Below are positions 1,731 through 16,998 of a stretch of 32,000 nucleotides of DNA, piece by piece. A program made the translations under genes and the position numbers. Below the pieces are notes generated by a model. That model searched no databases. It worked only from the letters and a program-made list of their open reading frames with translations, and was not told the origin of the DNA. This DNA is from Candidatus Syntropharchaeum caldarium. GTDB taxonomy: Archaea > Halobacteriota > Syntropharchaeia > Syntropharchaeales > Syntropharchaeaceae. The first letter of the stretch is position 1. Every line of letters begins with the position of its first letter. The stretch is from contig LYOS01000003.1 of assembly GCA_001766815.1 (NCBI GenBank), positions 85,254 to 117,253 on the forward strand, read 5' to 3'.

Positions 1731-4502
1731 TCATGTGGTTGTTCCAGGCATCAGGTGCTCTTCGGTCAGGAAAGTCCAGTAGCCATACCCTGGCGTCATA
1801 TCTATGAACTCAGAGATTCCTGGAGCGGGTGGATAGCTGTACACGAGCCTGAGATCTGTAGATGCCATTCCCTGGTACTCGACCGTTGATAGCATCGTTG
1901 CCTTATCACTGAGTCCTGTGGCAAGGACAAACTCCTCAACAGTCCAGCCCTCATCTGTGATATGACCGATCATGTTCCAGCCAACATACAGCTCCTGTAC
2001 CGGTGGCACCAGGGTCGTTGTATCATAGTGGACACAGATCATCTCAGGTGCGACCTTATAGACCCAGTACCCTTGACATGGATGAACGATTATAGCACCG
2101 TCATTGATCCAGGAATCTGTTGCTGCATCGTAGTAATGTGCGCTCTCACCCATTGAAAGGTTGAAGAGTGTTACGGCATCGACCGGTATGATCGGTTTTG
2201 GAACAGATACGAGGTTCCACCCTGCCTCAAGGAACAGACAGAATCCGTCATCCACCGTCACATTCCTTGTTGTTGTGTTGGTTAAGCCGTCATTGTCTGT
2301 TATGGTTAAGGTTATATTATAGGTGCCTGGTTCTGTGTATGCATGGGTTATTACAGGATCTGAAACGGTTGTGGTGTTGCCATCATCGAAGTTCCAGGTG
2401 TAGTTGGTGATAGAGCCGTCATCGCTGGAGAGGGAGGCGTTGAAGGTGATGACTTGGTTAACGGGAGGGTTTTGTGGGGTGAAGGTGAAGGAGGTGGTTG
2501 GGGGTTGGTTTGCTGCAACATCCACCCAGATCGGATTCGTGTAACAGCGATATTGTTCGTTGTTTGTTGTGTTTGAATATGCCTCAACACGATAATAACA
2601 TGATTCATTTGGTGAGATTATCAATTCGTGTTCATCGCAAAGAGTGTTTTTTCCAATAGAAGATGGCTGGATCACTGTGAAATTGCTTTCCTCAGTTCCA
2701 TTGATCACTCCCTTCTTAACGATGATCTTGTTTATATAACCAAATTCTGGAGTGCTTATCCACTGGATATTTAATGTAAGATTGTCTCCAGAAATTGCAT
2801 CGCCGATAATTGCTGTATGCCCAGATTTGTTGGTAATATTAAATACTACCAACGGACCATCAGTCATTACAGAATGACCATGTCTAAGAGCATTGAGGAT
2901 TCCATCATCACTGAAATTCTCTGTGTACACATAGGTCCTTACTTTTCCAAAAGCATTGTTTGATTCTTTAGTGAATGGAGGGATTGTATAAGATATTGAA
3001 TGGCTAAAGTCGCCATGAGCATCGGTGCCACCAATAATAAACACATCTTTACGTCCATTCAATAACAAACGTTTCCATTGTTCTAACCCGTCGTCTCGTT
3101 CAGTCATCCAGTTTGTATCTTGAGTGCATTTTCCATTCCACACTTGAAGACCATTATACCCCATCAAATCATAGTCTTCGGTTATCCAAGGCACTCTATC
3201 AAAAGGCAAGGCTTCTACTCCACGATGTCCTTCTGGATGTGCCGCATAACTAACGCCACCCTGAGAATTAACTATATCAATAACATCTTCGAGATTCCAT
3301 GTTGGGTCATCACACCATGGATCATCATGACCTCCGGGGATGAAGTCCAATCCAGTTCCTCCAACATTGGTGAAATTTTCCATTCCAAAGACCAAAAAAT
3401 GAACAACACCTCTTGGGACTAAAGGATTAGGAGGGTTCTCATGTCCATAACAAGAGACTTCCTCTCCAAGAATAAGTTTGTACGAACCAGTGGTGTAAGA
3501 GCTGACCTCACTTTTAAGGGCATTCCACTTGTGGTTAGGGTCTGCTGTTCTACTATCTTTTATATCAAAAGAATGATCTGTAATCGCGTTCCAGTCAAGT
3601 CCAATAGCTTTTCCAGCTTCTACTGTAGCTTCTACTGGAAAGCCAAGTTCCACTAAATTATCGGTATAACTACTGTGATAATGCGTGTCGCCGGAATACC
3701 AGTTATTAAGGTGTGGCAGAGTTTCATTTGCAATGGTAACATTGAAATGGCTGTGTGCATCAGAATCCCAATCCCAGAATCCACCAATATCCCTAATTAC
3801 TACATGGAAACTAACATCCCCACTTAACCCATATTCAGATGGATCCAAATAAGTAATGCCATACCAATCGCCAGGATAATATAGATTATAAAATGATTCA
3901 TTTACTGTAATGCCATTCCATTTTGTTACAGTTTCTAAAAGAATATCATCTGCTTCATTATTATCTTTATCATAATCTTCATCTAAGTATATTTCTACAT
4001 TTCCCAAATCATAATCACCACAATACCAAATATCGGCATCTTTAATCATAACAAGAATGGGTATCCTGCCGGATTGAACTCTCCATGGTGCATCAGCAAA
4101 CACCTCTTTACACAAAGTATTAATCATTTTTACAGTTACTGTATTATTTGATGGTGAGACTTCATAATTGGAGCCTTCGTTGTCGAGTTCCCATATCGTT
4201 CTATGTCCATGTAACCGAACATATAGTTTATATTCCCCAAGAGGAACCGAAACATTCATATCTTTTTGTTCAGTGATATCAAATTCGCTGAAAACCTCTT
4301 CCTTTGTACCCTCTGTTCTAACCACTGTAACATGCATTGGAGAAAATTCTGGGTAGGTATATGAGGTATATGGAATTGAATCAGGAGAAACATCCAATAA
4401 TAGGGTTCCGGAATCTTCAGCATAAACGACGGATATCGTACAGAACATTCCGATTATGCAAACTATTCCGGCTAAACACAGTCTAAGGCAATTTTTCGTC
4501 AT
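1731..4502 (-). CDS. secreted PHP-domain metallohydrolase-like protein with a PKD domain and a C-terminal GW..GYW repeat region
   Basis: 923-aa ORF. The N-terminus is a hydrophobic signal/anchor (MTKNCLRLCLAGIVCIIGMFCTISVVYAEDSG). PHP-type metal motifs are present: GDTHYHSSYTDN (about 3657..3692), ITDHSF, AAHPEG and GGTDAHGDF. A classic PKD domain (TFTPQNPPVNQVITFNASLSSDDGSITNYTWNFDDGNTTTVSDPVITHAYTEPGTYNITLTITDNDG) lies at about 2265..2515. The start overlaps the upstream gene stop by 4 nt. Confidence 0.85.
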   Translation of the reverse strand: MTKNCLRLCLAGIVCIIGMFCTISVVYAEDSGTLLLDVSPDSIPYTSYTYPEFSPMHVTVVRTEGTKEEVFSEFDITEQKDMNVSVPLGEYKLYVRLHGHRTIWELDNEGSNYEVSPSNNTVTVKMINTLCKEVFADAPWRVQSGRIPILVMIKDADIWYCGDYDLGNVEIYLDEDYDKDNNEADDILLETVTKWNGITVNESFYNLYYPGDWYGITYLDPSEYGLSGDVSFHVVIRDIGGFWDWDSDAHSHFNVTIANETLPHLNNWYSGDTHYHSSYTDNLVELGFPVEATVEAGKAIGLDWNAITDHSFDIKDSRTADPNHKWNALKSEVSSYTTGSYKLILGEEVSCYGHENPPNPLVPRGVVHFLVFGMENFTNVGGTGLDFIPGGHDDPWCDDPTWNLEDVIDIVNSQGGVSYAAHPEGHRGVEALPFDRVPWITEDYDLMGYNGLQVWNGKCTQDTNWMTERDDGLEQWKRLLLNGRKDVFIIGGTDAHGDFSHSISYTIPPFTKESNNAFGKVRTYVYTENFSDDGILNALRHGHSVMTDGPLVVFNITNKSGHTAIIGDAISGDNLTLNIQWISTPEFGYINKIIVKKGVINGTEESNFTVIQPSSIGKNTLCDEHELIISPNESCYYRVEAYSNTTNNEQYRCYTNPIWVDVAANQPPTTSFTFTPQNPPVNQVITFNASLSSDDGSITNYTWNFDDGNTTTVSDPVITHAYTEPGTYNITLTITDNDGLTNTTTRNVTVDDGFCLFLEAGWNLVSVPKPIIPVDAVTLFNLSMGESAHYYDAATDSWINDGAIIVHPCQGYWVYKVAPEMICVHYDTTTLVPPVQELYVGWNMIGHITDEGWTVEEFVLATGLSDKATMLSTVEYQGMASTDLRLVYSYPPAPGISEFIDMTPGYGYWTFLTEEHLMPGTTT

Positions 4503-4918
4503 TTTATCAACACCTTCTTACCTATCACAGTTATTAAAAGACCAATCCCAATACCGATCATTATGCCGAAAAAGGTTGGCATTCCAACAAACCATATAAT
4601 AAAGAGAAGAAGTGACAATATACCTGCTAACGCAGTGGAAATTAAATGGGTAAGATATGCCGGTAAACAGATAACTTTTAAACTTTCTGGAAAAACAAAT
4701 TCATGCCCTGCAAATCCTTCTGCAAAGATCCCCCATGCGTAAAGAATTCCTGTGACAAGACCCCATACTCCGCCAACAATCGCCCCTCTTTTTGTCCACT
4801 TGCTCGTTTCAGTTTGCGATGGCTTATTTATCAAAAATATCAATAACAGACCAGGTAATCTTCTACCCAATATCATCCCCAGAACCACCTCTCCACCACG
4901 ACTATAAGAATGCTCCAT
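4499..4918 (-). CDS. small integral membrane protein (3-4 predicted TM helices), function unknown
   Basis: 139-aa ORF with several hydrophobic stretches (LPGLLLIFLI, AIVGGVWGLVTGILYAWGIF, ALAGILSLLLFIIWFVGMPTFFGIMIGIGIGLLITVIG). It has a 4-nt ATGA overlap with the 923-aa gene, and a TATA-like box lies 20-35 nt upstream. Confidence 0.7.
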   Translation of the reverse strand: MEHSYSRGGEVVLGMILGRRLPGLLLIFLINKPSQTETSKWTKRGAIVGGVWGLVTGILYAWGIFAEGFAGHEFVFPESLKVICLPAYLTHLISTALAGILSLLLFIIWFVGMPTFFGIMIGIGIGLLITVIGKKVLIK

Positions 4919-5047: not shown

Positions 5048-5185
5048 ATGATCTTCTACTCTTCCCTCAACCTGTCCCCCACAGATCGGATCTGATTCGC
5101 TGATTCATTCAGTCTTCCGCGCATCTTCATCAGTTCTCTACCAGCATCCCTCTCCTCTGACCCCTCTATCCGCGCAAGTTTTGTG
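5048..5185 (-). repeat. 138-bp direct repeat copy B: the functional 3' end of the 343-aa gene plus 8 nt of flank
   Basis: 137/138 identical to 1463..1600. It encodes the C-terminal ...TKLARIEGSEERDAGRELMKMRGRLNESANQIRSVGDRLREE* of the 5056..6087 product. Confidence 0.9.
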
Positions 5186-6087
5186 GCAATAGTGTTTATC
5201 GATCGTGAAGTATCTTCGATAGTGGATGAGACCTCTTTAAGCTCAGAAGCGAGTGCCGCCATGTCAACTCCGCCTTCCTTACCCTTCAATGCATAGACAA
5301 AGCCACCACCGACTATGATACCAAGTACGATCGCAAGAATAACATAAAGGAGGACCGGGGGCGGAGCTATATCCTCAGATAGTGCTTTGTAATCCTCTGA
5401 GAGAATTAATGCCCATCCTGGATGCCCTTCTTCATAGAGACGTCTTATATTCGATTCAAGCTCACTCTCGCCGATTGTTTCACTCGCACTTGCAAGATTT
5501 GCTTCCATCTCCTCTCCTGCATCATCCAGAGCCTCACTTGTTGCGTAAAATTCCATGGACGGTACAAGCTTCTGCACGACTCGTTTTAGCGTACTGCCAT
5601 CTGTTGTGGTTCCGATCGTCAACGTCACATACACTCTCTTTTTCCCAATTCCTGTGAGATCCACGGACTCAAAATTAGGCTCTCTGACCTGTATCACGGC
5701 TTCGGGAACAGTTCCAGCGAGAATTATCGTTGGAGGGGTGAGTGCATGCTCCGCTTCTCCCTTCCATGTAATGACTGTGGCAGATGTATAGATATCCTGG
5801 CCATACTGCCATTCTGGATCTTCAAGGTTCGTCCGAAGCTCCAGGACGTACTCATCAGATATCGGATTATCCGTCTTCTCGATTGCGATGTGAAACTCAA
5901 GGTCATGCCCTTCAAGCTGTTCGCTATCTATGAAATCGGAGTACGGAATCTTACTACCTGTGTGCATATCGATGACGTATGACTTTGCCTCATCAATCCT
6001 CAGGATATCCTGGGCTGCAACACTACCACTCAGGATGTAAAAGAGTACAAACGCTATCAGAAGCGTCTTCTTCATTTTTTTCTTCAT
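5056..6087 (-). CDS. type-I membrane protein: signal peptide, ~220-aa ectodomain, single TM, ~75-aa cytoplasmic coiled-coil tail (last gene of the tubulin-like operon)
   Basis: 343-aa ORF. The signal peptide is MKKKMKKTLLIAFVLFYILSGSVAAQD. The TM segment is PPPVLLYVILAIVLGIIVGGGFVYAL, near aa 245-268. The C-terminus is charged and helical. It has a 4-nt ATGA overlap with the 863-aa gene. Confidence 0.8.
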   Translation of the reverse strand: MKKKMKKTLLIAFVLFYILSGSVAAQDILRIDEAKSYVIDMHTGSKIPYSDFIDSEQLEGHDLEFHIAIEKTDNPISDEYVLELRTNLEDPEWQYGQDIYTSATVITWKGEAEHALTPPTIILAGTVPEAVIQVREPNFESVDLTGIGKKRVYVTLTIGTTTDGSTLKRVVQKLVPSMEFYATSEALDDAGEEMEANLASASETIGESELESNIRRLYEEGHPGWALILSEDYKALSEDIAPPPVLLYVILAIVLGIIVGGGFVYALKGKEGGVDMAALASELKEVSSTIEDTSRSINTIATKLARIEGSEERDAGRELMKMRGRLNESANQIRSVGDRLREE

Positions 6088-8675
6088 TCTGCACGCTCCA
6101 TTATATCTCTTAGATCTTTTAACAGGAGCAGGATCTTTGCAAGAGGTGATCCAAGCTCCTTCATGAGCCTTATTGCATCCTTTGTGCCCATGTTGATCTT
6201 CTCAATCTCACTGTTTGCCTGAGCAATGTGGCGTATCACACTTGAAGTTGTCTCTTCTGAGGGGATTCTTCCAAGAAAGTCCTGTACGTTGTGTATCGCA
6301 GTCTGAACGTCGTCATTGAAGCTTTTGGAAAGGTTATCGATGACATCGATCAGGATCTCAACGTCTCTGTAGGTTTCATTCAGCATTCTGAGTAGTCTGT
6401 CACCATCTTCAAAGGCTTTTGCACCTTTTAACTTCTCTATCGTATCTTTAAAGTTTTTATCGATTGAGAGGTAGGTTTTGTACCCTTCCTCGAGCCCCTC
6501 CTGAAGTTTATCGATCTTAAGGCTGGCATTCTCAAGATCCTGTACCAGCATCGTTATATTTGCAATCGAGAAGCTTTCGGGTATGCGCATATCTTTTATT
6601 GCTTCTGCCATCTCGATACTTGAGATGAGGCGATCAAAGGAGTTTAAAGCTGATGCAAGCAGGATTGGTACCGTGGTCCAGATCGCTCTCTCTTCGATGA
6701 TCTCGTAATCTTTCCAGAAAGCTGTCACATTCTCGCGGTTTAAGTCGTCTTCGCCTGGTTTGTAGTCAATCCCTGTGATCACCGAGAACGGCTTTGGTGT
6801 CCCATAGAAGAGCGAATGGTGGCGCTGCAATTTGGAGAGATCGCTCGTGTCATACGCCTTCCCAAGCCACTCAAGCTCCCTTAGCCTTGGTGGAAGATCG
6901 GGGGCAGGTTGCCATGGCTGAAGACCGATCATGAGCGTGTAAATCGCGAAACTGTGAAGGCGTGCGGGTGTGTTGAGCTTCAGGATGTCAGCATCCTTTG
7001 CAAAGCGTTCTGTAACCATACTCCTGAAAGCAGTGTCACCGAGTCTCGCATCATCAAAGTTATCCATCCTGCTGCTCAGGACCGCTACAAAGTGCCCGAA
7101 CTTCTCCTCCTCATTTATCACATTGCCCTGTGCATCCAGTGCGAGGAAGCCGTACCTGTTCAGCGTCTCGAAGTACTTTGCAGTTGATGCGTTCTCGACC
7201 GATGGACGATAGTTCACCATCGGGTTGAAAATGATATCACCCTGATTGATCGGTGCGTGTGTCCACCTGAAGTATTCCTCCTCTCGCCCAAGTTTTCGCA
7301 TAATCTCCAGGAATGAGAGGTTCTTCAGGTCTTCACGATCTTTCTTTAGCTGCTTCACCTCATCCTCTGTAAGCTCGATCTGGTGATAACTTCTTGTGTT
7401 GAACGGCGAGGTAATCTCCCTCAGCGTCCTGTTCTTGATCGCCTTCAACTTCTCGATATCCTGCTCCACCATTCTGCGAGTCTCTTCGAGGTCGTTTGTG
7501 CGGATCTCAAGGTTAAAATCATCCTCCTTAAGCTCAGATAGCTTTCTCCTGGCACGATCAAGCCTGGACTTTGCATCTGATAGTGCTTTTCGATTAATAT
7601 ATGAAAATACTCCCTTTTTAGATTCGTAGGCGTCTATCTCTCGCTGGATCTCACTTATCTTCGCCTCAAGTCCCTGGAGTTCGATGCGCTTGGAATCGGC
7701 CTTATCACGGATCTCACCAAGCCTCGCGTCAATCTCGACAAGCTTCTCACGCATTCTTGGAATCTCATCCTCGATCTCATAGTAAAGCTGGAGTTTATCT
7801 GCCGGAAAGACGCACTCATAGTATCCAAGCGTTGAGAATCGACTCTCATACTCTCTTGCACGGTTCTGGAGATCGTTTAGATCGAGCCATTTGCCCTTTG
7901 CCTCGATGCCACCGCCTGGGACAAATCCGAGATCGAGCAGAAACCGTGAAATCGCCCTCTCAAGCTCGTCATCTCTATTCTGACCCTGTAGATCCCTTCC
8001 AAGCAGGAATACGATCTTGAATGGGTTTGAGTAGTTTTTATCCTCGATTATCATGTCCTGCTGGTGTGACATCAGAAAATGAAGCTCCTTTAAGGTTGCA
8101 TATCCATTTCCCATCGGTAAACCTGATTCGTTGCTTGATGGCAGGATCGTTATCCCGAAGATCAGAGGACCGGATCCAAACTGCTTTGTTATCCAGTCTC
8201 GTATATCGATCGCGATGTCAAGAAGCATGCTCGAACCTGTGCCACCACCGAGCGCAGATACCATCAGGATCAGAAAGTCCTTGCCACCCGTACGGTTACG
8301 AAGGTCTGAAGTGGCAGAGCCTATTGCATTCATGATGCGCTCCCTGTGGACGTTGTACATTGCTCTCCCGTATATCCTGTGCTGACCACATCCCGCCCCT
8401 GCTGCCATCAGGTATGGATCTGGGAGCCATCGATTCACGTTCTTCATAACGACCGTATCGGGCCTTGAGAGCACGATCTTTCTACGCTCCTCTATCTCTG
8501 TGCATGCATTTGCAGACGCCTGATCTGTATCAATGATCAGAAACTCCTCATTTCTTGGTATTCTATCACTTTTCAGGATGCTCAGTATGTTATTTACGAT
8601 CTTACTACCCTGCCCCCCTATTCCGATGATGAGTCTGTTTGTCGTGTCTTCTTTCTCAGCCACGTCCATACTCAC
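6084..8675 (-). CDS. large tubulin/FtsZ/CetZ-superfamily GTPase-like protein with a long coiled-coil/helical C-terminal extension
   Basis: 863-aa ORF with these tubulin/FtsZ-type motifs: LIIGIGGQGSKIVNNI (8601..8624, T1-like), AAGAGCGQHRIYGR (T3-like), ALGGGTGSS (8229..8249, tubulin/FtsZ signature GGGTG[ST]), GITILPSSNESG..GYATLKEL (T5-like, close to CetZ GILPGSDEGG.YTLNAA) and KWLDLNDLQN (T7-like). From about aa 300-420 the sequence is heptad-rich (EKLVEIDARLGEIRDKADSKRIELQGLEAKISEIQREIDAY...). The remaining ~440 aa are helical with no recognised motif. Confidence 0.75.
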   Translation of the reverse strand: MSMDVAEKEDTTNRLIIGIGGQGSKIVNNILSILKSDRIPRNEEFLIIDTDQASANACTEIEERRKIVLSRPDTVVMKNVNRWLPDPYLMAAGAGCGQHRIYGRAMYNVHRERIMNAIGSATSDLRNRTGGKDFLILMVSALGGGTGSSMLLDIAIDIRDWITKQFGSGPLIFGITILPSSNESGLPMGNGYATLKELHFLMSHQQDMIIEDKNYSNPFKIVFLLGRDLQGQNRDDELERAISRFLLDLGFVPGGGIEAKGKWLDLNDLQNRAREYESRFSTLGYYECVFPADKLQLYYEIEDEIPRMREKLVEIDARLGEIRDKADSKRIELQGLEAKISEIQREIDAYESKKGVFSYINRKALSDAKSRLDRARRKLSELKEDDFNLEIRTNDLEETRRMVEQDIEKLKAIKNRTLREITSPFNTRSYHQIELTEDEVKQLKKDREDLKNLSFLEIMRKLGREEEYFRWTHAPINQGDIIFNPMVNYRPSVENASTAKYFETLNRYGFLALDAQGNVINEEEKFGHFVAVLSSRMDNFDDARLGDTAFRSMVTERFAKDADILKLNTPARLHSFAIYTLMIGLQPWQPAPDLPPRLRELEWLGKAYDTSDLSKLQRHHSLFYGTPKPFSVITGIDYKPGEDDLNRENVTAFWKDYEIIEERAIWTTVPILLASALNSFDRLISSIEMAEAIKDMRIPESFSIANITMLVQDLENASLKIDKLQEGLEEGYKTYLSIDKNFKDTIEKLKGAKAFEDGDRLLRMLNETYRDVEILIDVIDNLSKSFNDDVQTAIHNVQDFLGRIPSEETTSSVIRHIAQANSEIEKINMGTKDAIRLMKELGSPLAKILLLLKDLRDIMERAE

Positions 8676-9109
8676 TTGCCCCCACGTAATTCATAGGATC
8701 TTGTTCGCTCTCGCATCTCCTCCAGTTCATCGGCAAAGTAGGCAAGCTCTCGCTCACCCTCTCTTATCTCACTCTCGACGCCGCCAACAACGCTATCCAT
8801 CGTTCGTGCCTGGGCAAGAACCCCTTTTGAACTCTTCTCGCCCCTGAACCAGACCAGTATACCGATTAAACCAAGCAGAACCCCGATTATGATTGTGCCA
8901 TAGACAAGCGCAAAGATTGCAGCTTCAGAGAGAGATGTGAAGTAGCGATCGCTGTATTCATTCAATACAAATGCAATCGAGAGAAAGATCACCCCGATAA
9001 TCGGAAACAGAAGCAGCATCTTCTCAACTTCCAGTCTCAAAAGCATGATGACAATCTCAAGAACGAATACGACAATTAGTATCAGTGTGATAATGCTGAG
9101 TGCATCCAT
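8672..9109 (-). CDS. small polytopic membrane protein with a short charged C-terminal helix (tubulin-like operon)
   Basis: 145-aa ORF with about 4 hydrophobic segments and the C-terminus ESEIREGERELAYFADELEEMRERTRSYELRGGK. A GAGGAG RBS (9116..9121) lies 6 nt upstream of the ATG. The stop overlaps the 863-aa gene start by 4 nt. Confidence 0.7.
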   Translation of the reverse strand: MDALSIITLILIVVFVLEIVIMLLRLEVEKMLLLFPIIGVIFLSIAFVLNEYSDRYFTSLSEAAIFALVYGTIIIGVLLGLIGILVWFRGEKSSKGVLAQARTMDSVVGGVESEIREGERELAYFADELEEMRERTRSYELRGGK

Positions 9110-9149
9110 GAATATCTCCTCAAGTTAGATACACGTTAATCGTTTAAAT

Positions 9150-10379
9150 TTATTTGCTGATAACATCCAGCCTGTCCCGGTCATATTCCAACCTGGAGTT
9201 TGCATCTTCGATGAGTGCTTCATACCTCAGCATAAACTCACCGAGCTGCTCGATCGTTTGTAGATCAAGAACATCCTGCATCCGATCGGCTCCCCAGTAA
9301 TCGACAGGATACTCTTCAGATGATGGTTCCTTATCTCTTATCTTTGCTTCAAGATCGAATATATTCTTATAAATCGCTTCAAGGGTCTCGATGGCTGTAA
9401 CTCGCAACTCTGCTTCGCATTCTTTCAATATATTCTGCTGTGATGGGGAGTCTGTATGCTCGATCCTCGCCTCTATCGCACGAACTTTCTCACCATCTGC
9501 GACCTTTTTAACGACACCGACCATCTCCAGCAGCATCTCCTTGTACTGATTGAACCCATCAGCGGTCTCATCGATGATGCGTTCCATCACATTCCTGAGG
9601 ATGCCCGCGGCAGCATCATAGTTTCCCCGCTCCATATTCTGCTCTGCAATCTTGATATCAGTCCTGATCCTTGAACGATCCCTTATCGTCTTTGAGCCTG
9701 ATTCCACTGCTTTCACCTCACGAAGCGAAGATTCGATCGCGTCATCAAAGATCGAGGTCAGATCACCCAAAAAGTGGGCGAGGTTCAGGATATCGATCTC
9801 AATATCTTCAAGGATCATCGCTTCAATACGCCTCATCTGATCGCCTATCCCTCTGTAACCCGCTGCTTCAAGCTCTCTCAGACGATCAAGATACCTTTCT
9901 CCCTGCTCAATGACCTTTCCATAGATCGTTGGTTCGTATCGATCTTTGATGCTCTCAATCTTCAGTTTGATCTCTTCGATATCAGAAGATCTCGCCTTTT
10001 TAAGCTTCGCTTTATCAAAATGGACTTCACCGTTTACAAGACACCCGATTGAGGATAGATCTGCCTTTACGGCGCTAAGTTCATCCCTGAACCCCCTTGT
10101 GACAATGTGATACTGGTTTTCAAAGTTAGAAAGCTCCCGCAAAAGTTCGATCAGGTTGTGAGCGATGCGCTTAAGATCCCGCTCAAGCACCCGGGTTTTT
10201 ATACTTTTTCCGCGCACTTCGGTCAGGTAGATTATGAAAAACGAGACGATTACCATCACAGGGATTAGAAGCAGGATTAACGTTATCGCAAGATCCGATC
10301 CCGTACCAAATAGCAGGAGAATTCCAATGAGGATTAAAATACCGAATAATATCGATCCGATTATCCCATATCGCCTCAT
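9150..10379 (-). CDS. membrane-anchored (2 N-terminal TM) all-helical/coiled-coil protein (tubulin-like operon)
   Basis: 409-aa ORF. The N-terminus MRRYGIIGSILFGILILIGILLLFGTGSDLAITLILLLIPVMVIVSFFIIYL gives two TM helices. The remaining ~340 aa are charged and helical, with no enzymatic motif. It has an ATGA overlap with the upstream 299-aa gene. Confidence 0.8.
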   Translation of the reverse strand: MRRYGIIGSILFGILILIGILLLFGTGSDLAITLILLLIPVMVIVSFFIIYLTEVRGKSIKTRVLERDLKRIAHNLIELLRELSNFENQYHIVTRGFRDELSAVKADLSSIGCLVNGEVHFDKAKLKKARSSDIEEIKLKIESIKDRYEPTIYGKVIEQGERYLDRLRELEAAGYRGIGDQMRRIEAMILEDIEIDILNLAHFLGDLTSIFDDAIESSLREVKAVESGSKTIRDRSRIRTDIKIAEQNMERGNYDAAAGILRNVMERIIDETADGFNQYKEMLLEMVGVVKKVADGEKVRAIEARIEHTDSPSQQNILKECEAELRVTAIETLEAIYKNIFDLEAKIRDKEPSSEEYPVDYWGADRMQDVLDLQTIEQLGEFMLRYEALIEDANSRLEYDRDRLDVISK

Positions 10380-11275
10380 ACTCGCCCACCAATCTGCTTA
10401 TGTGCTTTGAATTCCTCAAATGAGTACGTAAAGATCACTGTTATCGATACGATATTGCGTCTCGTCTTCCTGATATCGATCGTTGATCTCGTGGTATATC
10501 TCTGCATGAGATCCTCCACCAGCGCCTGATCGATCGTATCAACTCTTTCTTCCGGGACATTTATCAATGCAGCGCCCTTCACCGATCCAATCGGGTCATC
10601 AAATACGGTTAGCTTCTCAAGTGCAACTCTGAGCATCGTCCTTATGTCGATCTCATGGTGTGGGATTATCGGGATAATATAACCAAGTAACCCCTTTGTA
10701 AGCTCTGATGAACGCGCAACCGCAGCATAGCCTGCTTCCCCCTCAAATGAAAGGCTTTTGAGCACGTCATCGATCGATTGCGCCTCGAATATATCCTTCA
10801 GGATCGATGCCACATACTCGTTATACTGATCATAGTAGTTCTCAAAATAGGGGAGATGAGATAGTTTCTCGTTGTCAACGATTATCACACCATTTGCCCT
10901 CGTTTTAAGTTCATTGAGAGCTTTGAATGCCAGATTGATCGAATCACGATCTGTTCTTCGTGTTGCTGGAATTATACCAACGACATATCGATGAAAACCT
11001 GCATCTTTCGCTATTTTCGCAAGATCCAGTGTCACAGTTCCTCCAATTTCCCCTCCAAGTCCTGCAAAAAGGAAGACGTTTTTCACGCCATTCTTGAGAT
11101 GTTTTTTGAAAAGTTCTTCACTTTCAGGCGATTTGTGGCTGATTGTAACGCTATCTGCGATTTTTTTCATCCCTGGATGGTAACGCCATAGTGCATCAAG
11201 CAGGCGGCCTCCAGCAGTCCCGATGCCAGCGATGAGATTGGGTCTTGCCACACATATCTCTTTACCGTATTCCAT
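10376..11275 (-). CDS. compact FtsZ/CetZ-like protein with a degenerate nucleotide-binding signature (first gene of the tubulin-like operon)
   Basis: 299-aa ORF with these FtsZ-type motifs: NLIAGIGTAGGRLLD (G-box 1), FLFAGLGGEIGGTVTLDLAKIAK (11036..11062 encodes GLGGEIGGT where FtsZ has GGGTGTG), YVVGIIPA....NGVIIVDNEKL (FtsZ has VVTKPF...DTLIVIPNDKL) and VKGAALINVPEE (FtsZ has AKGVLINITGG). It has no C-terminal tail. Confidence 0.7.
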   Translation of the reverse strand: MEYGKEICVARPNLIAGIGTAGGRLLDALWRYHPGMKKIADSVTISHKSPESEELFKKHLKNGVKNVFLFAGLGGEIGGTVTLDLAKIAKDAGFHRYVVGIIPATRRTDRDSINLAFKALNELKTRANGVIIVDNEKLSHLPYFENYYDQYNEYVASILKDIFEAQSIDDVLKSLSFEGEAGYAAVARSSELTKGLLGYIIPIIPHHEIDIRTMLRVALEKLTVFDDPIGSVKGAALINVPEERVDTIDQALVEDLMQRYTTRSTIDIRKTRRNIVSITVIFTYSFEEFKAHKQIGGRV

Positions 11276-11311: not shown

Positions 11312-12373
11312 CTAACGACTCATGCCAGGCACCAGAAACACCCTGTCATCGATCTTAACAATCCTGACCTCTTCTCCTGCACCCTCCGTTAAAAACAGTG
11401 GCTTTTTGATCGTAACAGCCCTGAACGTCTCAGGATCAAGTATTTCTACCTCCTTCTCATAAACCATGAGAAGCACAGCCTCCTTCGCCTCAGAAGCCTT
11501 CATGCAGAATTTCAACTCTGATAAATCTATTTTTCCTGCCTGTGTGCCGTCTTCGAGGTAGATTCCACCTGCATGTTTTGCTATCGAGGTAATAAGCATA
11601 ATTTTTCCCATGTGATATGCGATATCGCCCACAACAAGTCCAGGAAGCCTGACAACGATCGTCAAACGGTAGATGTTCTTTCCATTACGCTTTCCTACAA
11701 GTTTAGGTGATGTAATGCTCTTTCCACCAAATTGCTTGATGATTTCCTTTGCTCCGTCCTGTGCAGCGCCCTGATCACCAACATAGATATCAACCCCTGT
11801 CTTTACGTCGCGGAGTTTTGTCACAAACGAGTCATGATGTGCAATACGATCATCAAGGATCCTGAGGCAGGCATCGATCTCCTCATCTGTGGGTATGCGG
11901 TCTTTGGCCCTTATCTGGACTGTTGCCTCGTAATAACCCCCCGCTATCCTGCTGCATCGTGTGCAACTCTCACGGATAATTTTAACCTCGATATCCTGTT
12001 CCTTTTCAAACGGTTGATCGCAGATCCTGCCACTGATGTGAAGACGCGCTGGAATGAGACCGACAGGTGCATCCCCAATCTCACAGTCAAGCGAAAGTTC
12101 AAACTCATCGAGCAACGCTGAGATCTTCACAGTCTTCAGGATCTCTTCCCGGATAGACGTTGTGAGATCGCCATATACCCATCTTCCATGGCAATAATGT
12201 GCACCACAATTTGGACAAAATCTGATTTCTACTCGTTGTATCTCCTCGATTGGGCTGAATGCCCTGGTGAAGCAATTCCTGCAGACACCATCTATGAGTT
12301 CCTCGACATCAGCCCCGCAATTTGGACAGAATTTTAAGTCAGTTACCCCCTTCATCGTGGTTCGTCTCATCAT
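11312..12373 (-). CDS. NMD3-family protein (archaeal homolog of the 60S export adaptor NMD3, COG1499-type)
   Basis: CxxC pairs are FCPNCGADVEELIDGVCRNCF, FCPNCGAHYCHGRW and CTRCSRIAGGYYEATVQIR, the last containing the NMD3-typical YEAxxQxR motif. The ORF track extends it to 12427, but that part overlaps the topA 3' end. Internal ATGs at 12373, 12370 or 12355 (MKGVTDLKFCPNCG) are more plausible starts, so the exact start is uncertain. Confidence 0.85.
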   Translation of the reverse strand: MMRRTTMKGVTDLKFCPNCGADVEELIDGVCRNCFTRAFSPIEEIQRVEIRFCPNCGAHYCHGRWVYGDLTTSIREEILKTVKISALLDEFELSLDCEIGDAPVGLIPARLHISGRICDQPFEKEQDIEVKIIRESCTRCSRIAGGYYEATVQIRAKDRIPTDEEIDACLRILDDRIAHHDSFVTKLRDVKTGVDIYVGDQGAAQDGAKEIIKQFGGKSITSPKLVGKRNGKNIYRLTIVVRLPGLVVGDIAYHMGKIMLITSIAKHAGGIYLEDGTQAGKIDLSELKFCMKASEAKEAVLLMVYEKEVEILDPETFRAVTIKKPLFLTEGAGEEVRIVKIDDRVFLVPGMSR

Positions 12374-14387
12374 TTTCTTTCTTCTTTGAATCCTGCCATG
12401 CCATGAAGTTGCAGAGTGGGCATCCAAGATCCCATGGACGTTTTCCCTTATTTATGATCCTCAATTTACTCATATTGCCGTGTTCCTTACAGACCTCGCC
12501 TGTTACGATTATTTTACCTGTCTTTGGTAGGGGCAGAGAATAAGTACAATCAGGATAACCAGAGCAGCCAACGAACCTTGATCCTCTCCTTGATCTGCGA
12601 ATTATAAGTTCCTTTCCACAGTCTGGACATTCTCCAACGACCATGTCGGCCCTCATACCTTCTTTGATTGTTGTTGCAATCGCCTCTTCATTCGATTTCA
12701 GGTCCTCAAATATCTGATTTAAAATCTTTCGTGACTCTCCGATGATCTCTTCTTCACTCACATTGCCATCTGCAATTCTATCCATCGCTTCTTCAAGCAT
12801 ACGAGTCATTTCTGGATCTGTGATCATCGAAGCATACTTTTCAAGGGCATCAATCACGCCATAAGCCTTTCTGGTTGGTTTCATTGGATTCCCAACAATA
12901 TAAGCCCTTGAATACAACTTTGAGATCGTTTCATGCCTTGTACTTTTTGTTCCAAGCCCGAGTTCCTCCATCTTCTTGATAAGTCGCCCCTGGCCATAGC
13001 GGGATGGTGGCTTTGTCTCCTTTTCGAGCACAGCAATCTCGATCAGGTTGAGCAGATCACCAACTGAAAGTTGAGGCAGGATGCGCTCTTCGATCTTCAA
13101 ATATGGATAAAATGCTCGCCATCCATATTCTTCGATAATTGCACCGTTTACCTTGAATGGTTCATCCTTTATATCGATCTTAACGCCCATCGTAAGCCAT
13201 TGTGCAGGCTCTGCGAGTGTTGCAAAGAAGCGCCTGACAACAAGCTCATAAATCTTCCATTCGTCCTCTTTCAGATCTGATTTCGCTACATAGGATACCG
13301 GATAGATCGGGGGATGATCGGTCGTCTCTTTCTTGCCGCGTGATGGTTTAAGTTCGTTCTTCGCAAGAAGCTTTTTCGCCTCTTCCTTGAATACACCCTT
13401 CTTAAAGAGGGCTACGATACCTCTGAGGTCGATGCTCTCTGGATACACCGTGTTATCGGTTCGTGGATATGAGATAAAACCGTTCACATAGAGCGTTTCA
13501 GCTATTCTCATCGCATTTGCGGCTGAAAATCCGATTGAACTTGCAGCACGAAGGAACTCCGTTGTGTTGAACGGTATTGGCGGGCGATCAACCTTCTTCT
13601 TCTTTTTAATATCGGTTACTCGCCCCTCCTTTGCACCTTCAAGCTTTTTCAGGCATTTTTCAACCTCATCATGCTCGAGAAATCTGTTCTTTGCGTGTTT
13701 TGCCTCAAATCCATCGAATTTTGCATGAATTTCCCAGTATGGTGTGGGAACAAACGACTCGATCTCCCGCTCACGATCCACAAGCAGTGCAAGTGTGGGC
13801 GACTGAACCCTCCCTGCTGAGAGGAAGTTTGACCCAAGCGAACGCGATACAAGCGAGATAAATCTCGTAAGTGATGCACCCCAGACCAGATCGATAATCT
13901 GACGTGTCTCTGCTGAGTGAGCGAGGTTATAATCAAGTTCGACGAGGTTCGAGAACGCTTTCTCAATCTCCTGTTTTGTGATCGCACTGTAACGTGCGCG
14001 ATTCACTCTAACCGACTCATTCTGTTCTTTTATGATCTTAAGCGCCTCAAGTCCAATGAGTTCGCCTTCCCGATCAAAGTCTGTTGCGATCGTAACCTCA
14101 TCAGCCTCTGGCGCAATCTCCTTCAGAAGTGAGATGATCTTGTCATTTAGTGGCGTTGTGACGATCTCGGCATTAACCAGAGACGCCGCATCGACCTCCT
14201 CCCATCTGCTGTACTGCGGTGGAAAGTCCACACCAATGATATGCCCGCTAAGTCCGATAACAGCAAGATCTTCATTGATATAGAAGAGATTCGCACCCTT
14301 TATACGCTTCTGCTTTGCTTTACCCCCAGATAAGATCTCTGATATTCGCTTTGCGGTATTGTGCTTCTCTGTTATGATATATCGCAT
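12339..14387 (-). CDS. topA: DNA topoisomerase, type IA (archaeal TopA/topoisomerase I-III family)
   Basis: 682 aa. It has a Toprim N-terminus (MRYIITEKHNTAKRISEIL, TDFDREGE), the active-site Tyr motif GFISYPRTDN, and C-terminal zinc ribbons (CPDCGKELIIRRSRRGSRFVGCSGYPDCTYSLPLP; CKEHG...CPLC). Confidence 0.95.
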   Translation of the reverse strand: MRYIITEKHNTAKRISEILSGGKAKQKRIKGANLFYINEDLAVIGLSGHIIGVDFPPQYSRWEEVDAASLVNAEIVTTPLNDKIISLLKEIAPEADEVTIATDFDREGELIGLEALKIIKEQNESVRVNRARYSAITKQEIEKAFSNLVELDYNLAHSAETRQIIDLVWGASLTRFISLVSRSLGSNFLSAGRVQSPTLALLVDREREIESFVPTPYWEIHAKFDGFEAKHAKNRFLEHDEVEKCLKKLEGAKEGRVTDIKKKKKVDRPPIPFNTTEFLRAASSIGFSAANAMRIAETLYVNGFISYPRTDNTVYPESIDLRGIVALFKKGVFKEEAKKLLAKNELKPSRGKKETTDHPPIYPVSYVAKSDLKEDEWKIYELVVRRFFATLAEPAQWLTMGVKIDIKDEPFKVNGAIIEEYGWRAFYPYLKIEERILPQLSVGDLLNLIEIAVLEKETKPPSRYGQGRLIKKMEELGLGTKSTRHETISKLYSRAYIVGNPMKPTRKAYGVIDALEKYASMITDPEMTRMLEEAMDRIADGNVSEEEIIGESRKILNQIFEDLKSNEEAIATTIKEGMRADMVVGECPDCGKELIIRRSRRGSRFVGCSGYPDCTYSLPLPKTGKIIVTGEVCKEHGNMSKLRIINKGKRPWDLGCPLCNFMAWQDSKKKENDETNHDEGGN

Positions 14388-14565: not shown

Positions 14566-14603
14566 ATAGATCGATAAAAGAGCAGTTATCGGTAAAGGGT
14601 TTG

Positions 14604-16025
14604 ATGATGAACTGTGAGATCAATGGCATGTTTGATCCCGAATCGCTCGTTGTGATCGGTGCATCAAGCAAGCGAGATTATTACTTTCTGAGGTGTCACG
14701 AGAATTTTAAAGGTAAACTCTATGCCGTCAATCGGAACGAAGAAGCAGGACGGGAGGTTATTCCAGGTGTCAAATTCTACAGGAGCGTGCTTGACATACC
14801 TGAAAAGATCGATTTCGCCATCATCGAGGTTCCAGGAGAAGAGATACCAGCAATCATCAGAAAGTGTGGAAAGCGAGGTGTGAAGTTTGCAACGGTCTTT
14901 GCATCAGGCTACAGTGAGCTTGGTACAGAAGCTGGAAAACACGCAGAAGAGGAACTCATCGAGGCGGCAAATGCTGCAGGGATTAAAATAATAGGTCCAA
15001 ACTGTATGGGGATCTACTATCCTGCAAAAGGCATGAGTTTCAGGTTTGATCTTTCAACAGAATCTGGTGAAGTATCATTTGTATCACAGAGTGGTGGACA
15101 TGCCCTGAACTTCTCGTTACTTGGAAGTATTCATGGTATAAAATTTGATAAGGTGATAAGCTATGGCAATGGGGCGATGATCGATAGCACCGACCTGATC
15201 GAGTACCTTATGCACGATCCGTCGACAGGAATCATCGCAGCCTACATCGAGGGTGTGAAGGATGGGAGAAGGTTTCTGAGTGTCCTGAAAGAGGCGGCAC
15301 AGATCAAACCTGTTATAATATGGAAAGGCGGAGTAACAGATGCAGGCGCATCCGCTGTCACGTCTCACTCTGGTTCACTGGCAGGTGATGCACGGATATG
15401 GGATGCGGCACTGAAGCAGGCTGGTGTGATCAGGGTGGATGATATGGATGAACTGATAGATGTCACAAGCACGCTCACAACTTCTCCACTTCCAGAAAAC
15501 AGGCGCGTTGGAATCATCTCGATCAGTGGTGGGCAGTGTGTTGTGCTCGCTGATCTTGCATCCAGATATGGCTTCAGGATACCTCCGCTTGGGGATGTGA
15601 CACGCGAAAAGCTCTCAAAGCTCATGCCCAACGTCGGAACAAGCATCAAAAACCCGATAGATGGTGCTGCATCATGGGCAAATCTGGGTACCGTGAAGGA
15701 GACGATAAGGCTTGTGATGGAGGATGAAGGGATCGATTCAGTGCTTATTGAGATCTCAATTCACTACATGCTTCATATTTTCTATCATAACGAGGAGGAC
15801 AGAATGAGTAGACTCTATGAAATCCTCTGTGAGCTTAAAAACCAATCGAGAAAGCCCTTCTTTGTGATACTCTCGCCTTCGAACTACTGGCATGAACGGA
15901 GACTGCTCGAAGAAAAACTTATTGAAAGCGGCGTTCCGGTATTCCCAGGATTTAAACGAGCTCTTAAAACACTTAAAAACCTGCTCCACTATAAAGAAAG
16001 GGGAGGAAGATCACTTTATGAATAA
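14604..16025 (+). CDS. ADP-forming acyl/acetyl-CoA synthetase alpha-subunit-like protein (CoA-binding plus succinyl-CoA-ligase-like flavodoxin domains)
   Basis: The CoA-binding N-terminus is LVVIGASSK..., followed by IIGPNCMGIY, SQSGG and the phosphohistidine-type segment VTSHSGSLAGD. The track begins at TTG 14601, and ATG 14604 is the first ATG. No ATP-grasp beta subunit is adjacent. Confidence 0.85.
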   Translation: MMNCEINGMFDPESLVVIGASSKRDYYFLRCHENFKGKLYAVNRNEEAGREVIPGVKFYRSVLDIPEKIDFAIIEVPGEEIPAIIRKCGKRGVKFATVFASGYSELGTEAGKHAEEELIEAANAAGIKIIGPNCMGIYYPAKGMSFRFDLSTESGEVSFVSQSGGHALNFSLLGSIHGIKFDKVISYGNGAMIDSTDLIEYLMHDPSTGIIAAYIEGVKDGRRFLSVLKEAAQIKPVIIWKGGVTDAGASAVTSHSGSLAGDARIWDAALKQAGVIRVDDMDELIDVTSTLTTSPLPENRRVGIISISGGQCVVLADLASRYGFRIPPLGDVTREKLSKLMPNVGTSIKNPIDGAASWANLGTVKETIRLVMEDEGIDSVLIEISIHYMLHIFYHNEEDRMSRLYEILCELKNQSRKPFFVILSPSNYWHERRLLEEKLIESGVPVFPGFKRALKTLKNLLHYKERGGRSLYE

Positions 16026-16998
16026 AGACGATGCATTGCGTTTGATCCTGCGGAATACGCAGGAGGTTGTTAAAGAAGATGAGCTCAGGGCACTTCTTGA
16101 GAACGAAAGGACACCAATCGCCTATACAGGCTATGAACCCAGCGGAAAGATCCACATGGGGCACATGCTCACCGTAAACAAATTACTCGATCTCCAGAAA
16201 GCTGGATTCAAGATAATTGTCCTTCTTGCAGACCTTCATGGTTATCTGAACGAGAAGGGATCGTTTGATGATGTCCAGAGAATTGCCGAGATGAACAGAA
16301 GGGCTTTCATCGCGCTTGGACTTGATCCAGAAAAGACTGAGTTTGTGAAGGGGTCGAGTTTTCAGCTTGAACCTGATTATATGCTTAACATCCTTAAGCT
16401 TGCAAGAGATACGACCCTGAACCGTGCAAAGCGTTCAATGGATGAGATCTCAAGGGGGATGGAAAACCCAAAGGTCTCACAGATGATCTATCCGCTCATG
16501 CAGGCGATGGATATTGCAAGACTGAATGTCGATCTTGCAGTAGGTGGGATCGATCAACGAAAGATTCACATGCTTGCACGCGAGAACCTGCCCCCTCTTG
16601 GCTTCAGAGCGCCGACATGCCTCCATACGCCCATCCTGCTGGGCCTTGATGGCGAAAAGATGTCATCATCCCAGGGTAACTACATCTCGGTCGATGATGA
16701 TGTGAACGCGATAAAGAAGAAGATCAGGGGTGCGTTCTGTCCTGCAAAGGTTATTGAGGATAATCCAATCATCGAGATCTTCCGCTACCACATATTTCCT
16801 CGCTTTGAGCGAATTGTGATCGAGCGACCTGAGAAGTACGGCGGCAATCTTGAGATTGAGAGCATTGAGGAACTTGGCAGAATTTTCAGTAAAGGAGAAC
16901 TTCATCCAATGGATTTAAAAAATGCAGCAGCCTCGTATCTAAACGAGATCATTGAACCTGTGAGATTGAAGATCGGAGAGGTAGATGATACGAGATAG
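16018..16998 (+). CDS. tyrS: tyrosine--tRNA ligase (archaeal type)
   Basis: From ATG 16018: MNKDDALRLILRNTQEVVKEDELRALLENERTPIAYTGYEPSGKIHMGHML (HIGH-like HMGH) and GEKMSSSQGN (KMSKS-like). The product is 326 aa. The track's extension back to 15892 lies inside the preceding gene and is rejected. Confidence 0.95.
   Translation: MNKDDALRLILRNTQEVVKEDELRALLENERTPIAYTGYEPSGKIHMGHMLTVNKLLDLQKAGFKIIVLLADLHGYLNEKGSFDDVQRIAEMNRRAFIALGLDPEKTEFVKGSSFQLEPDYMLNILKLARDTTLNRAKRSMDEISRGMENPKVSQMIYPLMQAMDIARLNVDLAVGGIDQRKIHMLARENLPPLGFRAPTCLHTPILLGLDGEKMSSSQGNYISVDDDVNAIKKKIRGAFCPAKVIEDNPIIEIFRYHIFPRFERIVIERPEKYGGNLEIESIEELGRIFSKGELHPMDLKNAAASYLNEIIEPVRLKIGEVDDTR

Follow-up and report, generated by a model that had tools for sequence, protein, structure and literature searches.

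Among the branches of the tubulin superfamily, that of the FtsZl1 proteins is one of the most divergent, and in the searchable literature it is described only computationally. The family was defined in 2010 by Makarova and Koonin, who recognised in it an FtsZ-like head, an extended coiled coil and an alpha-helical C-terminal domain; they found no C-terminal similarity, and the T6-H7 region was not identifiable. Its genes lie in operons with vWA and membrane proteins, the partners often being vWA, P-loop GTPase, Ser/Thr kinase or OmpA-like proteins, and a role in membrane remodelling was predicted (PMC2875224). Santana-Molina et al. (2023) equated the Tubulin_2 family with this "FtsZ-like" family (PMC9871819), and a review from 2011 considered the function of FtsZl1 to be unknown and noted that these proteins may not form filaments (PMC3160578). 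NCBI names the Tubulin_2 family 'tubulin-like domain-containing protein'. Here, we will focus on an FtsZl1 protein of 863 amino acids (aa) that is encoded in a stretch of 32,000 nucleotides (nt) of the alkane-oxidising archaeon Candidatus Syntropharchaeum caldarium (contig LYOS01000003.1, positions 85,254 to 117,253), which we call the window, and on the four genes that accompany it in a cassette. The structural model detailed below suggests that its archaeal subfamily keeps the apparatus for polymerisation and for activation of the GTPase, that is, a T7 loop and a C-terminal tubulin domain, the latter being split by a large helical insertion.

As a database finding, the protein is otherwise ordinary. 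A preliminary description of this DNA had judged a tubulin-type head on a long coiled-coil stalk to be an unusual architecture, but the same organisation was published as FtsZl1 in 2010 (PMC2875224) and is recognised by a Pfam model. Our addition is modest, and consists of the predicted split-domain layout, the conserved T7 aspartates and a five-gene cassette that carries a second, degenerate tubulin-like gene.

Family membership and extent of the subfamily

The assignment of the 863-aa protein to FtsZl1/Tubulin_2, a known and computationally described family, is secure. The Pfam Tubulin_2 model (PF13809), whose cut-off is 27 bits, gives 95.9 bits (E = 3.8e-27) over aa 15-299, that is, profile positions 1-346 of 356, and the classical Tubulin model reaches 32.1 bits, just under its gathering cut-off of 33. 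These are the only significant Pfam matches of the protein, in which neither FtsZ_C nor Tubulin_C is matched by Pfam, and neither FtsZ nor CetZ by NCBIfam. When the predicted structure was compared by Foldseek with the Protein Data Bank (PDB), the 37 best matches were all CetZ, FtsZ, TubZ, BtubA or tubulin. The tubulin-type head proposed in the preliminary description was thus recovered by both approaches, which give the tubulin superfamily only, and no better alignment with a non-tubulin P-loop or Rossmann family was found.

The open reading frame and its GGGTGSS signature are real and lie exactly where they had been placed (Table 1). The frame is not a chance product, since 79 protein clusters match it over its full length (E from 0 to 1e-101, word-indexed search) and its Tubulin_2 score is significant. 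Its GTG start shares the sequence GTGA with the stop of the upstream 145-aa gene. An in-frame ATG stands two codons 3' of this GTG and would give the shorter product of 861 aa; the database protein P0001, which is 99% identical, has this very length, which fits a start at the downstream ATG.

The subfamily is compact and consists of proteins from Syntrophoarchaeum, ANME-1, Altiarchaeales and a few other uncultured lineages, the spread obtained from a scan of GTDB genomes being a lower bound. The best match, at 99% identity, comes from a metagenome-assembled genome (MAG) of Candidatus Syntrophoarchaeum sp. Among the matches listed, the close homologues belong to ANME-1/Methanophagales (~65% identity) and Syntrophoarchaeum, and an Altiarchaeales MAG (34%) and a Thermoplasmatota fragment (39%) are also present; full-length homologues at 28-34% identity come from Altiarchaeales and other uncultured lineages. 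An alignment of 19 homologues, A1, is co-linear from end to end, and a repeat of the word-indexed search with alignment returned the same 79 clusters, with unchanged diversity. When 1.84 billion representative proteins were searched exhaustively by HMMER with the profile of the whole protein, 3632 matches were obtained at E <= 1e-3; at stricter limits there were 702 (E <= 1e-10) and 55 (E <= 1e-30). The profile is covered from end to end, extension included (positions ~5-860), by about 45 representatives at 50% identity; the bulk of the Tubulin_2 family, typically 1000-1200 aa long, matches at positions ~10-200 only. In plasmid and phage collections, the matches are distant ones of the N-terminal domain to bacterial Tubulin_2 proteins only.

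Two further entries seem to owe their taxonomic labels to contamination during MAG binning and not to a real spread: one is a 4.5-kb contig under the name Nitrosotalea sp. (L009), with an ANME-1-type cassette at 66% identity, and the other a 715-aa fragment under the name Desulfuromonadales bacterium (P0070), which is a 61%-identical homologue.

The ends of the protein vary within the subfamily. The ANME-1 proteins and some distant homologues (P0003-P0068, P0074, P0076, P0077) carry an extra acidic C-terminal tail of ~35 aa (columns ~970-1018 of A1) that ends in a conserved (E/D)LP(D/E)LS(L/T)-like peptide and may recall, by analogy, the linker and C-terminal peptide of FtsZ; the 863-aa protein and its 79%-identical relative P0002 are without it. 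At the other end, some full-length members of 1009-1055 aa (P0118, P0121, P0125, P0128, P0129) have an extra region of ~180-200 aa before the tubulin head.

The names that databases give to homologues are not reliable. For those called "Tubulin-like protein CetZ", no CetZ or FtsZ model is matched; CetZ proteins have two contiguous domains in ~350-400 aa, and the present protein has 863 aa with an insertion and scores on Tubulin_2. The UniRef name "Chromosome partition protein Smc" corresponds to SMC matches of 14.7-19.7 bits against cut-offs of 300-729, and the weak SMC and ASRP model matches are confined to the coiled coil (aa 300-453); what defines SMC proteins, namely a split ABC-ATPase head, a hinge and a coiled coil of ~50 nm, was not found beyond these.

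A predicted tubulin core split by an insertion

After T7, the elements of the tubulin fold follow one another in the order H8-S7-H9-S8-H10-S9-S10 (Löwe and Amos; Nogales et al.). An AlphaFold2 monomer model of the 863-aa protein was built on the 19-sequence alignment and has a mean predicted local distance difference test (pLDDT) value of 85.1 and a predicted template modelling (pTM) score of 0.77. In this model, the GTPase domain (aa 13-226) is followed by H7 (aa 235-248), a long loop ending at D265, H8 and S7. Next come two long helices, each of 60-65 residues (aa 292-351 and aa 358-422), which form a hairpin with a turn at aa 352-357, where the alignment gaps cluster. A crude heptad score flags aa 298-399, and the heptad-rich segment reported earlier at aa ~300-420 is thereby confirmed. 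The ~440 aa that follow had been described as helical; in the model this is correct for most of the remainder, but not for three beta-strands, S8 (aa 526-535), S9 (aa 559-568) and S10 (aa 575-585), with H10 at aa 547-557. The modelled order, H8, S7, insertion, S8, H10, S9, S10, matches the canonical one, the insertion being ~235 aa long and composed of a coiled-coil hairpin of ~130 aa and a helical subdomain of ~95 aa, between S7 and S8.

The structural comparison points in the same direction. The top Foldseek match is CetZ1 (4b46, E = 7.9e-11), with a target-normalised template modelling (TM) score of 0.73 over 610 columns for a target of 330 residues; CetZ2 reaches 0.72, and Staphylococcus aureus FtsZ 0.63-0.70 over ~585 columns. 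Alignments that span ~585-610 query columns score 0.63-0.73 on this target-normalised scale, against 0.52-0.55 for those of ~285-296 columns that stop short of passing the coiled coil. Because the alignments to whole CetZ and FtsZ chains extend over ~600 query residues, we read the coiled coil and the helical subdomain as an insertion. At the level of the model, the C-terminal tubulin domain would therefore be present but split, and not replaced as had been proposed. A core of the normal two-domain kind is found in the model, and the parts added to it are structured and do not amount to a mere disordered tail.

The loop between S7 and H9 corresponds, in tubulin, to the M-loop, through which lateral contacts are made in microtubules. 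The predicted insertion reads as sitting at this H9/M-loop position, where it would replace or extend H9. When aa 423-863 were modelled alone, the pLDDT of the S8-S10 region fell below 50 while that of the terminal bundle was 83-93; this loss of confidence is consistent with a need of S8-S10 for S7 and H8 from the N-terminal half. A profile spliced from aa 1-291 and 520-665 found CetZ 3zid as its best PDB match (E = 1.2e-5, in the T4-T5 region), and a single-sequence phmmer search of the PDB sequences gave only a spurious coiled-coil match, to KKT4 (E = 0.43).

The C-terminal bundle (aa 662-862) has no significant Foldseek match, whether taken from the full model or from that of the C-terminal part, its best ones being at E ~1e-2 and TM 0.1-0.25, and in this model-based account it is treated as a generic elongated helical bundle without a specific structural relative. 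A ClyA-like, pore-forming identity was considered for the C-terminal part and discarded: the matches are generic bundles (Hbl-B, AhlB, MakE, designed proteins, MukF), none of them with E < 1e-2.

Nucleotide-binding loops and the T7 aspartates

The loops of the head were named by analogy with FtsZ and, besides T1 and T4 (Table 1), are proposed to include T3 (GAGCGQHR), T5 (LPSSNE, with E183) and T6 (N190). The glycines G18, G20, G21 and G23 are invariant in the alignment of 19 homologues; so are A141 and G143-S148, which are nearly invariant among 37 subfamily representatives, one per cluster of 50% identity. Conservation was counted over these 37: G20, G23, R100, G145, G147, N190 and E197 are kept in all of them, T146 and S148 in 36. 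The nucleotide-binding loops T1-T6 are retained in the 863-aa protein.

The motif LDLNDL (aa 264-269, nt 7869..7886) had already been likened to a T7 loop, and this holds well. Position D265 is D in 32 of the 37 representatives and E in 3, and D268 is D in 31, N in 4 and T in 2. In the model, both aspartates sit between H7 and H8 (aa 266-276). The spliced profile also aligns lDlnDl...FstlgyyEv co-linearly with TDLGDF...GTLGYYQA of CetZ, below threshold. The motif is thus predicted to function as T7. Acidic T7 residues of FtsZ and tubulin work on the nucleotide bound by the adjoining subunit of the filament. Because these acidic residues are conserved here, head-to-tail association would be the simplest explanation of their conservation.

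A five-gene cassette with three membrane proteins

The gene is the fourth of a cassette of five, all on the minus strand, which runs from 11275 down to 5056 (Table 1). Three of the four junctions show a 4-nt overlap of start and stop codons, and the cassette is predicted to be translationally coupled. Transmembrane segments are predicted in three products and in neither of the two tubulin-like ones; the 863-aa protein itself has no amphipathic or transmembrane segment. The 343-aa product has a signal or anchor segment at aa 8-26, an external domain of ~220 aa, a transmembrane segment at aa 245-263 and a cytoplasmic tail of ~80 aa, and its gene is the most widely conserved partner. The charged region of the 409-aa product is coiled-coil-like by eye.

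Another partner, of 299 aa, is itself related to FtsZ and CetZ. Its T1 loop is intact. T4 is degraded, to LGGEIGG in the window and, in ANME-1, to LGDC or LGVR with a deletion; inspection by eye revealed no obvious pair of acidic T7 residues. A word-indexed search returned 12 clusters only, and hhalign aligned the spliced profile with this family in the T4-T5 region only (probability 27%). From these motifs, the 299-aa protein is probably a pseudo-GTPase partner of the 863-aa protein.

Table 1. Positions, in the window, of the cassette genes and of the features of the 863-aa FtsZl1 protein
Feature	Positions	Strand	Remarks and basis
FtsZl1/Tubulin_2-family gene (cassette gene 4)	6084..8675	-	863 aa from GTG or 861 aa from ATG at 8669; Pfam and homologues
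N-terminal GTPase domain of tubulin/FtsZ type, core helix H7 included, aa 13-250	7926..8639	-	Pfam, invariant columns, Foldseek
T1 loop GIGGQG, aa 18-23 (G18-G23)	8607..8624	-	Residue conservation
T4 signature GGGTGSS, aa 143-149	8229..8249	-	Sequence and conservation
T7-like loop WLDLNDL (D265, D268), with H8 (aa 266-276) and S7 (aa 280-289)	7806..7892	-	Model, conservation and CetZ alignment
Predicted antiparallel coiled-coil hairpin, aa 292-422	7410..7802	-	Heptad score and model
Predicted small helical subdomain inside the insertion, aa 430-525	7101..7388	-	M459 and Y489 conserved; model and conservation
Predicted second half of tubulin C-terminal domain, aa 526-585	6921..7100	-	N539, Y579 and G584 conserved; model and Foldseek
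Predicted helical linker of short helices, aa 586-661	6693..6920	-	Y608, W654 and Y657 conserved; model and conservation
Predicted elongated C-terminal bundle (four long helices), aa 662-862	6090..6692	-	Model
Cassette gene 1, 299 aa, degenerate FtsZ/CetZ-like	10376..11275	-	Profile against PDB: FtsZ E = 8e-7, CetZ2 E = 8e-6
Cassette gene 2, 409 aa, N-terminal transmembrane segment(s) and long charged cytoplasmic region	9150..10379	-	Start overlaps end of gene 1 by 4 nt
Cassette gene 3, 145 aa, multi-transmembrane, charged C-terminal tail	8672..9109	-	Stop overlaps start of 863-aa gene (GTGA)
Cassette gene 5, 343 aa, bitopic membrane protein	5056..6087	-	Start overlaps stop of 863-aa gene (ATGA)

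The cassette is conserved. Most ANME-1 loci with sufficient contig have the same five genes in the same order, the partners being 32-50% identical (37-65% when given per gene for the cassette), and a few of these loci (L012, L015, L022) show only the core formed by the 145-, 863- and 343-aa genes. In three distant loci (L001, L004, L005; 28-34% identity), a homologue of the 343-aa gene still lies 3' of the FtsZl1 gene (E 8e-20 to 5e-30) and a further PF00091 tubulin gene is found nearby; a small membrane protein precedes the FtsZl1 gene in L001, and vWA genes adjoin it in L004 and L005, in agreement with the FtsZl1 operons described before (PMC2875224). No vWA, kinase, P-loop GTPase or OmpA gene, and no canonical FtsZ gene, was found in the 32-kb window.

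In the Altiarchaeales locus L001, two paralogous genes of 341 and 724 aa (5852..9204), 5' of the FtsZl1 gene, stand in the place of the 299- and 409-aa genes. In their products, units of ~100 aa (...ISRISxDTWEITDGN..YEI.D...) are repeated ahead of a coiled coil; the tubulin gene of this locus (PF00091, 461 aa) is on the opposite strand.

The cassette is surrounded by archaeal housekeeping genes, those for topoisomerase I (topA), NMD3, TFB, TBP, the ribosomal proteins L11, L1 and L10, the thermosome, PolB and an aminoacyl-tRNA synthetase, and the locus is core chromosome and not a mobile element or a defence island.

Comparison with the closest described systems

The 863-aa protein shares with FtsZl1/Tubulin_2 the GGGTG-type signature, the extended coiled coil after the GTPase region and the helical C-terminal part, and, like these proteins, it has no FtsZ_C or Tubulin_C domain detectable by sequence and is encoded with membrane proteins, vWA genes being found near its distant relatives. 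It also differs from the described family. The T7-like DxxD and, in the model, the S7-S10 domain are present in this subfamily, whereas the 2010 paper found neither T6-H7 nor a C-terminal domain; the compact subfamily aligns over its full length and the bulk of the family only near the N-terminus; and in place of the vWA, GTPase, kinase or OmpA genes, the cassette of the window carries a degenerate FtsZ-like gene.

CetZ proteins (4b46, 4b45, 3zid) are the best structural matches, with target-normalised TM scores of 0.66-0.73, and 3zid is also the best sequence-profile match in the PDB. The LPxxxE motif of T5 and a D-L-x-D...TLGYY stretch are common to both, and some homologues are labelled 'CetZ' in databases. 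The structure-based identity is however only ~11%, the CetZ proteins of the PDB have 349-395 aa against 863 here, and to our knowledge no coiled-coil insertion is known in CetZ.

With FtsZ, TubZ and tubulin, the protein would share the two-domain fold, as modelled, the loops T1-T7 and, in T7, an acidic residue that should complete the active site of a neighbour; it differs from them by the ~235-aa insertion at S7/H9 and the C-terminal helical bundle of ~200 aa. Since the predicted insertion is at the M-loop site and the bundle adds to it, canonical lateral packing is unlikely.

A likeness to dynamin-like proteins (BDLP, atlastin, GBP) is one of analogy only: a GTPase head on an antiparallel helical stalk, an association with membrane proteins and possibly a role in membrane remodelling. 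The GTPase folds differ, being of the tubulin type here and of the TRAFAC type there, and there is no sequence or structural match.

Proposed functioning and alternative explanations

Considering these elements, we lean towards a cytoskeletal or membrane-remodelling module that depends on guanosine triphosphate (GTP), is tethered to the membrane and is built on the cytoplasmic FtsZl1 protein. The 863-aa protein would bind GTP and assemble head-to-tail, at least into dimers and probably into protofilaments, in which each subunit would trigger, through its T7 aspartates, the hydrolysis of GTP by the following one. The stalk, on the M-loop side, and the bundle would stick out laterally from the polymer; with stalks in that place, subunits would not pack side by side as in microtubules. 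Stalk and bundle would link the polymer to the three membrane proteins of the cassette by way of their cytoplasmic tails. The 299-aa protein, given its degraded GTP motif, would act as a non-catalytic partner, for instance a cap, a nucleator or an adaptor.

If the split-domain layout holds, a tubulin fold bearing a lateral stalk would be a previously unreported arrangement, and it would offer concrete targets: the two T7 aspartates (D265 and D268), the junction of S7 with S8, and the partners of 343 and 145 aa. A more ambitious version, which we regard as doubtful, would make of the protein a complete polymerising tubulin whose M-loop has turned into a lateral stalk, working in a two-tubulin system with the degenerate 299-aa partner and three transmembrane adaptors that would couple it across the membrane. 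Such a system might be compared, loosely, to the alpha/beta-tubulin or BtubA/B pairs, or else to a tubulin with a dedicated cap or nucleator. If true, it would represent an unrecognised envelope-coupled cytoskeleton in alkane- and methane-oxidising archaea and would answer the question raised in 2010, whether FtsZl1 proteins form canonical longitudinal contacts.

Several points weigh against the module that we favour and the fold on which it is built. The two-domain fold draws on one AlphaFold2 model, made from 19 sequences, and on Foldseek summary scores, and the match of the spliced profile to the PDB is significant in the T3-T5 region only, S8-S10 being left unaligned. A monomer model does not distinguish an intramolecular hairpin from an intermolecular coiled coil. 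The contact of the stalk and bundle with the membrane proteins is suggested by gene linkage alone, and the conclusions may hold for this subfamily only, the wider family aligning at profile positions ~10-200. Finally, no experiment on any FtsZl1 protein was found in the literature searched, subscription journals being largely outside this search.

Among the alternatives, a dynamin- or BDLP-type remodeller is the one that survives best, although we hold it to be rather unlikely. The protein would then form a GTP-gated dimer that does not polymerise; dimerisation of the GTPase heads would drive tethering, fission or fusion, with an antiparallel helical stalk and with a tip or C-terminal bundle that engages membranes or partners. 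The head-plus-hairpin-stalk layout of the model would suit it, as would the conserved partners, all membrane proteins, and the membrane remodelling predicted for the family (PMC2875224). The turn of the hairpin even carries, in the closer homologues, G-hydrophobic-F/L residues (GVFSY, GMFSH, GWFGK, GLVSA), but these are not kept in distant members of the subfamily, and the 863-aa protein is without an amphipathic or transmembrane segment of its own. The head has a tubulin fold and not that of dynamin and TRAFAC GTPases, and the conserved acidic T7 residues act, in tubulins, across a head-to-tail interface.

The architecture proposed in the preliminary description, a tubulin GTPase reduced to its head, would have lost the C-terminal domain, with a coiled coil and a novel helical region in its place, and would work as a dimerising ruler or tether rather than as a protofilament subunit. 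We consider it improbable. It would account for the absence of a Pfam FtsZ_C or Tubulin_C match and for a sequence profile that finds the tubulins of the PDB in the T3-T5 region only, and it agrees with the paper of 2010, which saw neither C-terminal similarity nor T6-H7 in the family (PMC2875224). Against it stand the whole-chain alignments to CetZ and FtsZ across the insertion, with TM scores of 0.63-0.73 against ~0.53 at ~285 columns, the four strands and two helices that the model places in canonical order around the insertion, and the DxxD conserved at the T7 position.

A motor for the segregation of DNA or mobile elements, TubZ-like or SMC-like, is very unlikely. In its favour, the Foldseek matches include TubZ, Tubulin_2 proteins are carried by Borg elements and by megaplasmids of bacteria, and some homologues bear the Smc name. 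But the weak SMC/ASRP matches (15-20 bits for SMC, far from its cut-offs) are of the coiled-coil level only, the partners encoded in the cassette are membrane proteins and none of them binds DNA or centromeres, and the chromosomal genes around the locus are of the housekeeping kind.

A system of defence against viruses, or of conflict, with a tubulin-like sensor or effector is hardly credible: it could be evoked by a cassette of several genes without a known function and by flanks that differ from one lineage to another, but PADLOC found no defence system in the five cassette proteins bar one sub-threshold match, the cassette encodes no nuclease, protease or toxin domain, its neighbourhood is of the housekeeping kind, and it is widely kept in ANME-1 with identities typical of vertical descent.

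Other observations in the window

Directly downstream of the cassette region lies a gene for a 923-aa secreted protein with a PKD domain (1731..4502, minus strand), whose frame is overlapped by 4 nt by that of a 139-aa protein with four transmembrane segments (4499..4918, minus strand). Both were considered as cassette members and set aside, as they are not conserved beside the cassette in other genomes.

Two pairs of listed reading frames overlap: NMD3, with a TTG start, and topoisomerase I (11312..12427 and 12339..14387, minus strand) by ~89 nt, and a CoA-ligase-like gene and a class I aminoacyl-tRNA synthetase (14601..16025 and 15892..16998, plus strand) by ~134 nt. The upstream starts listed for these pairs are probably too early.

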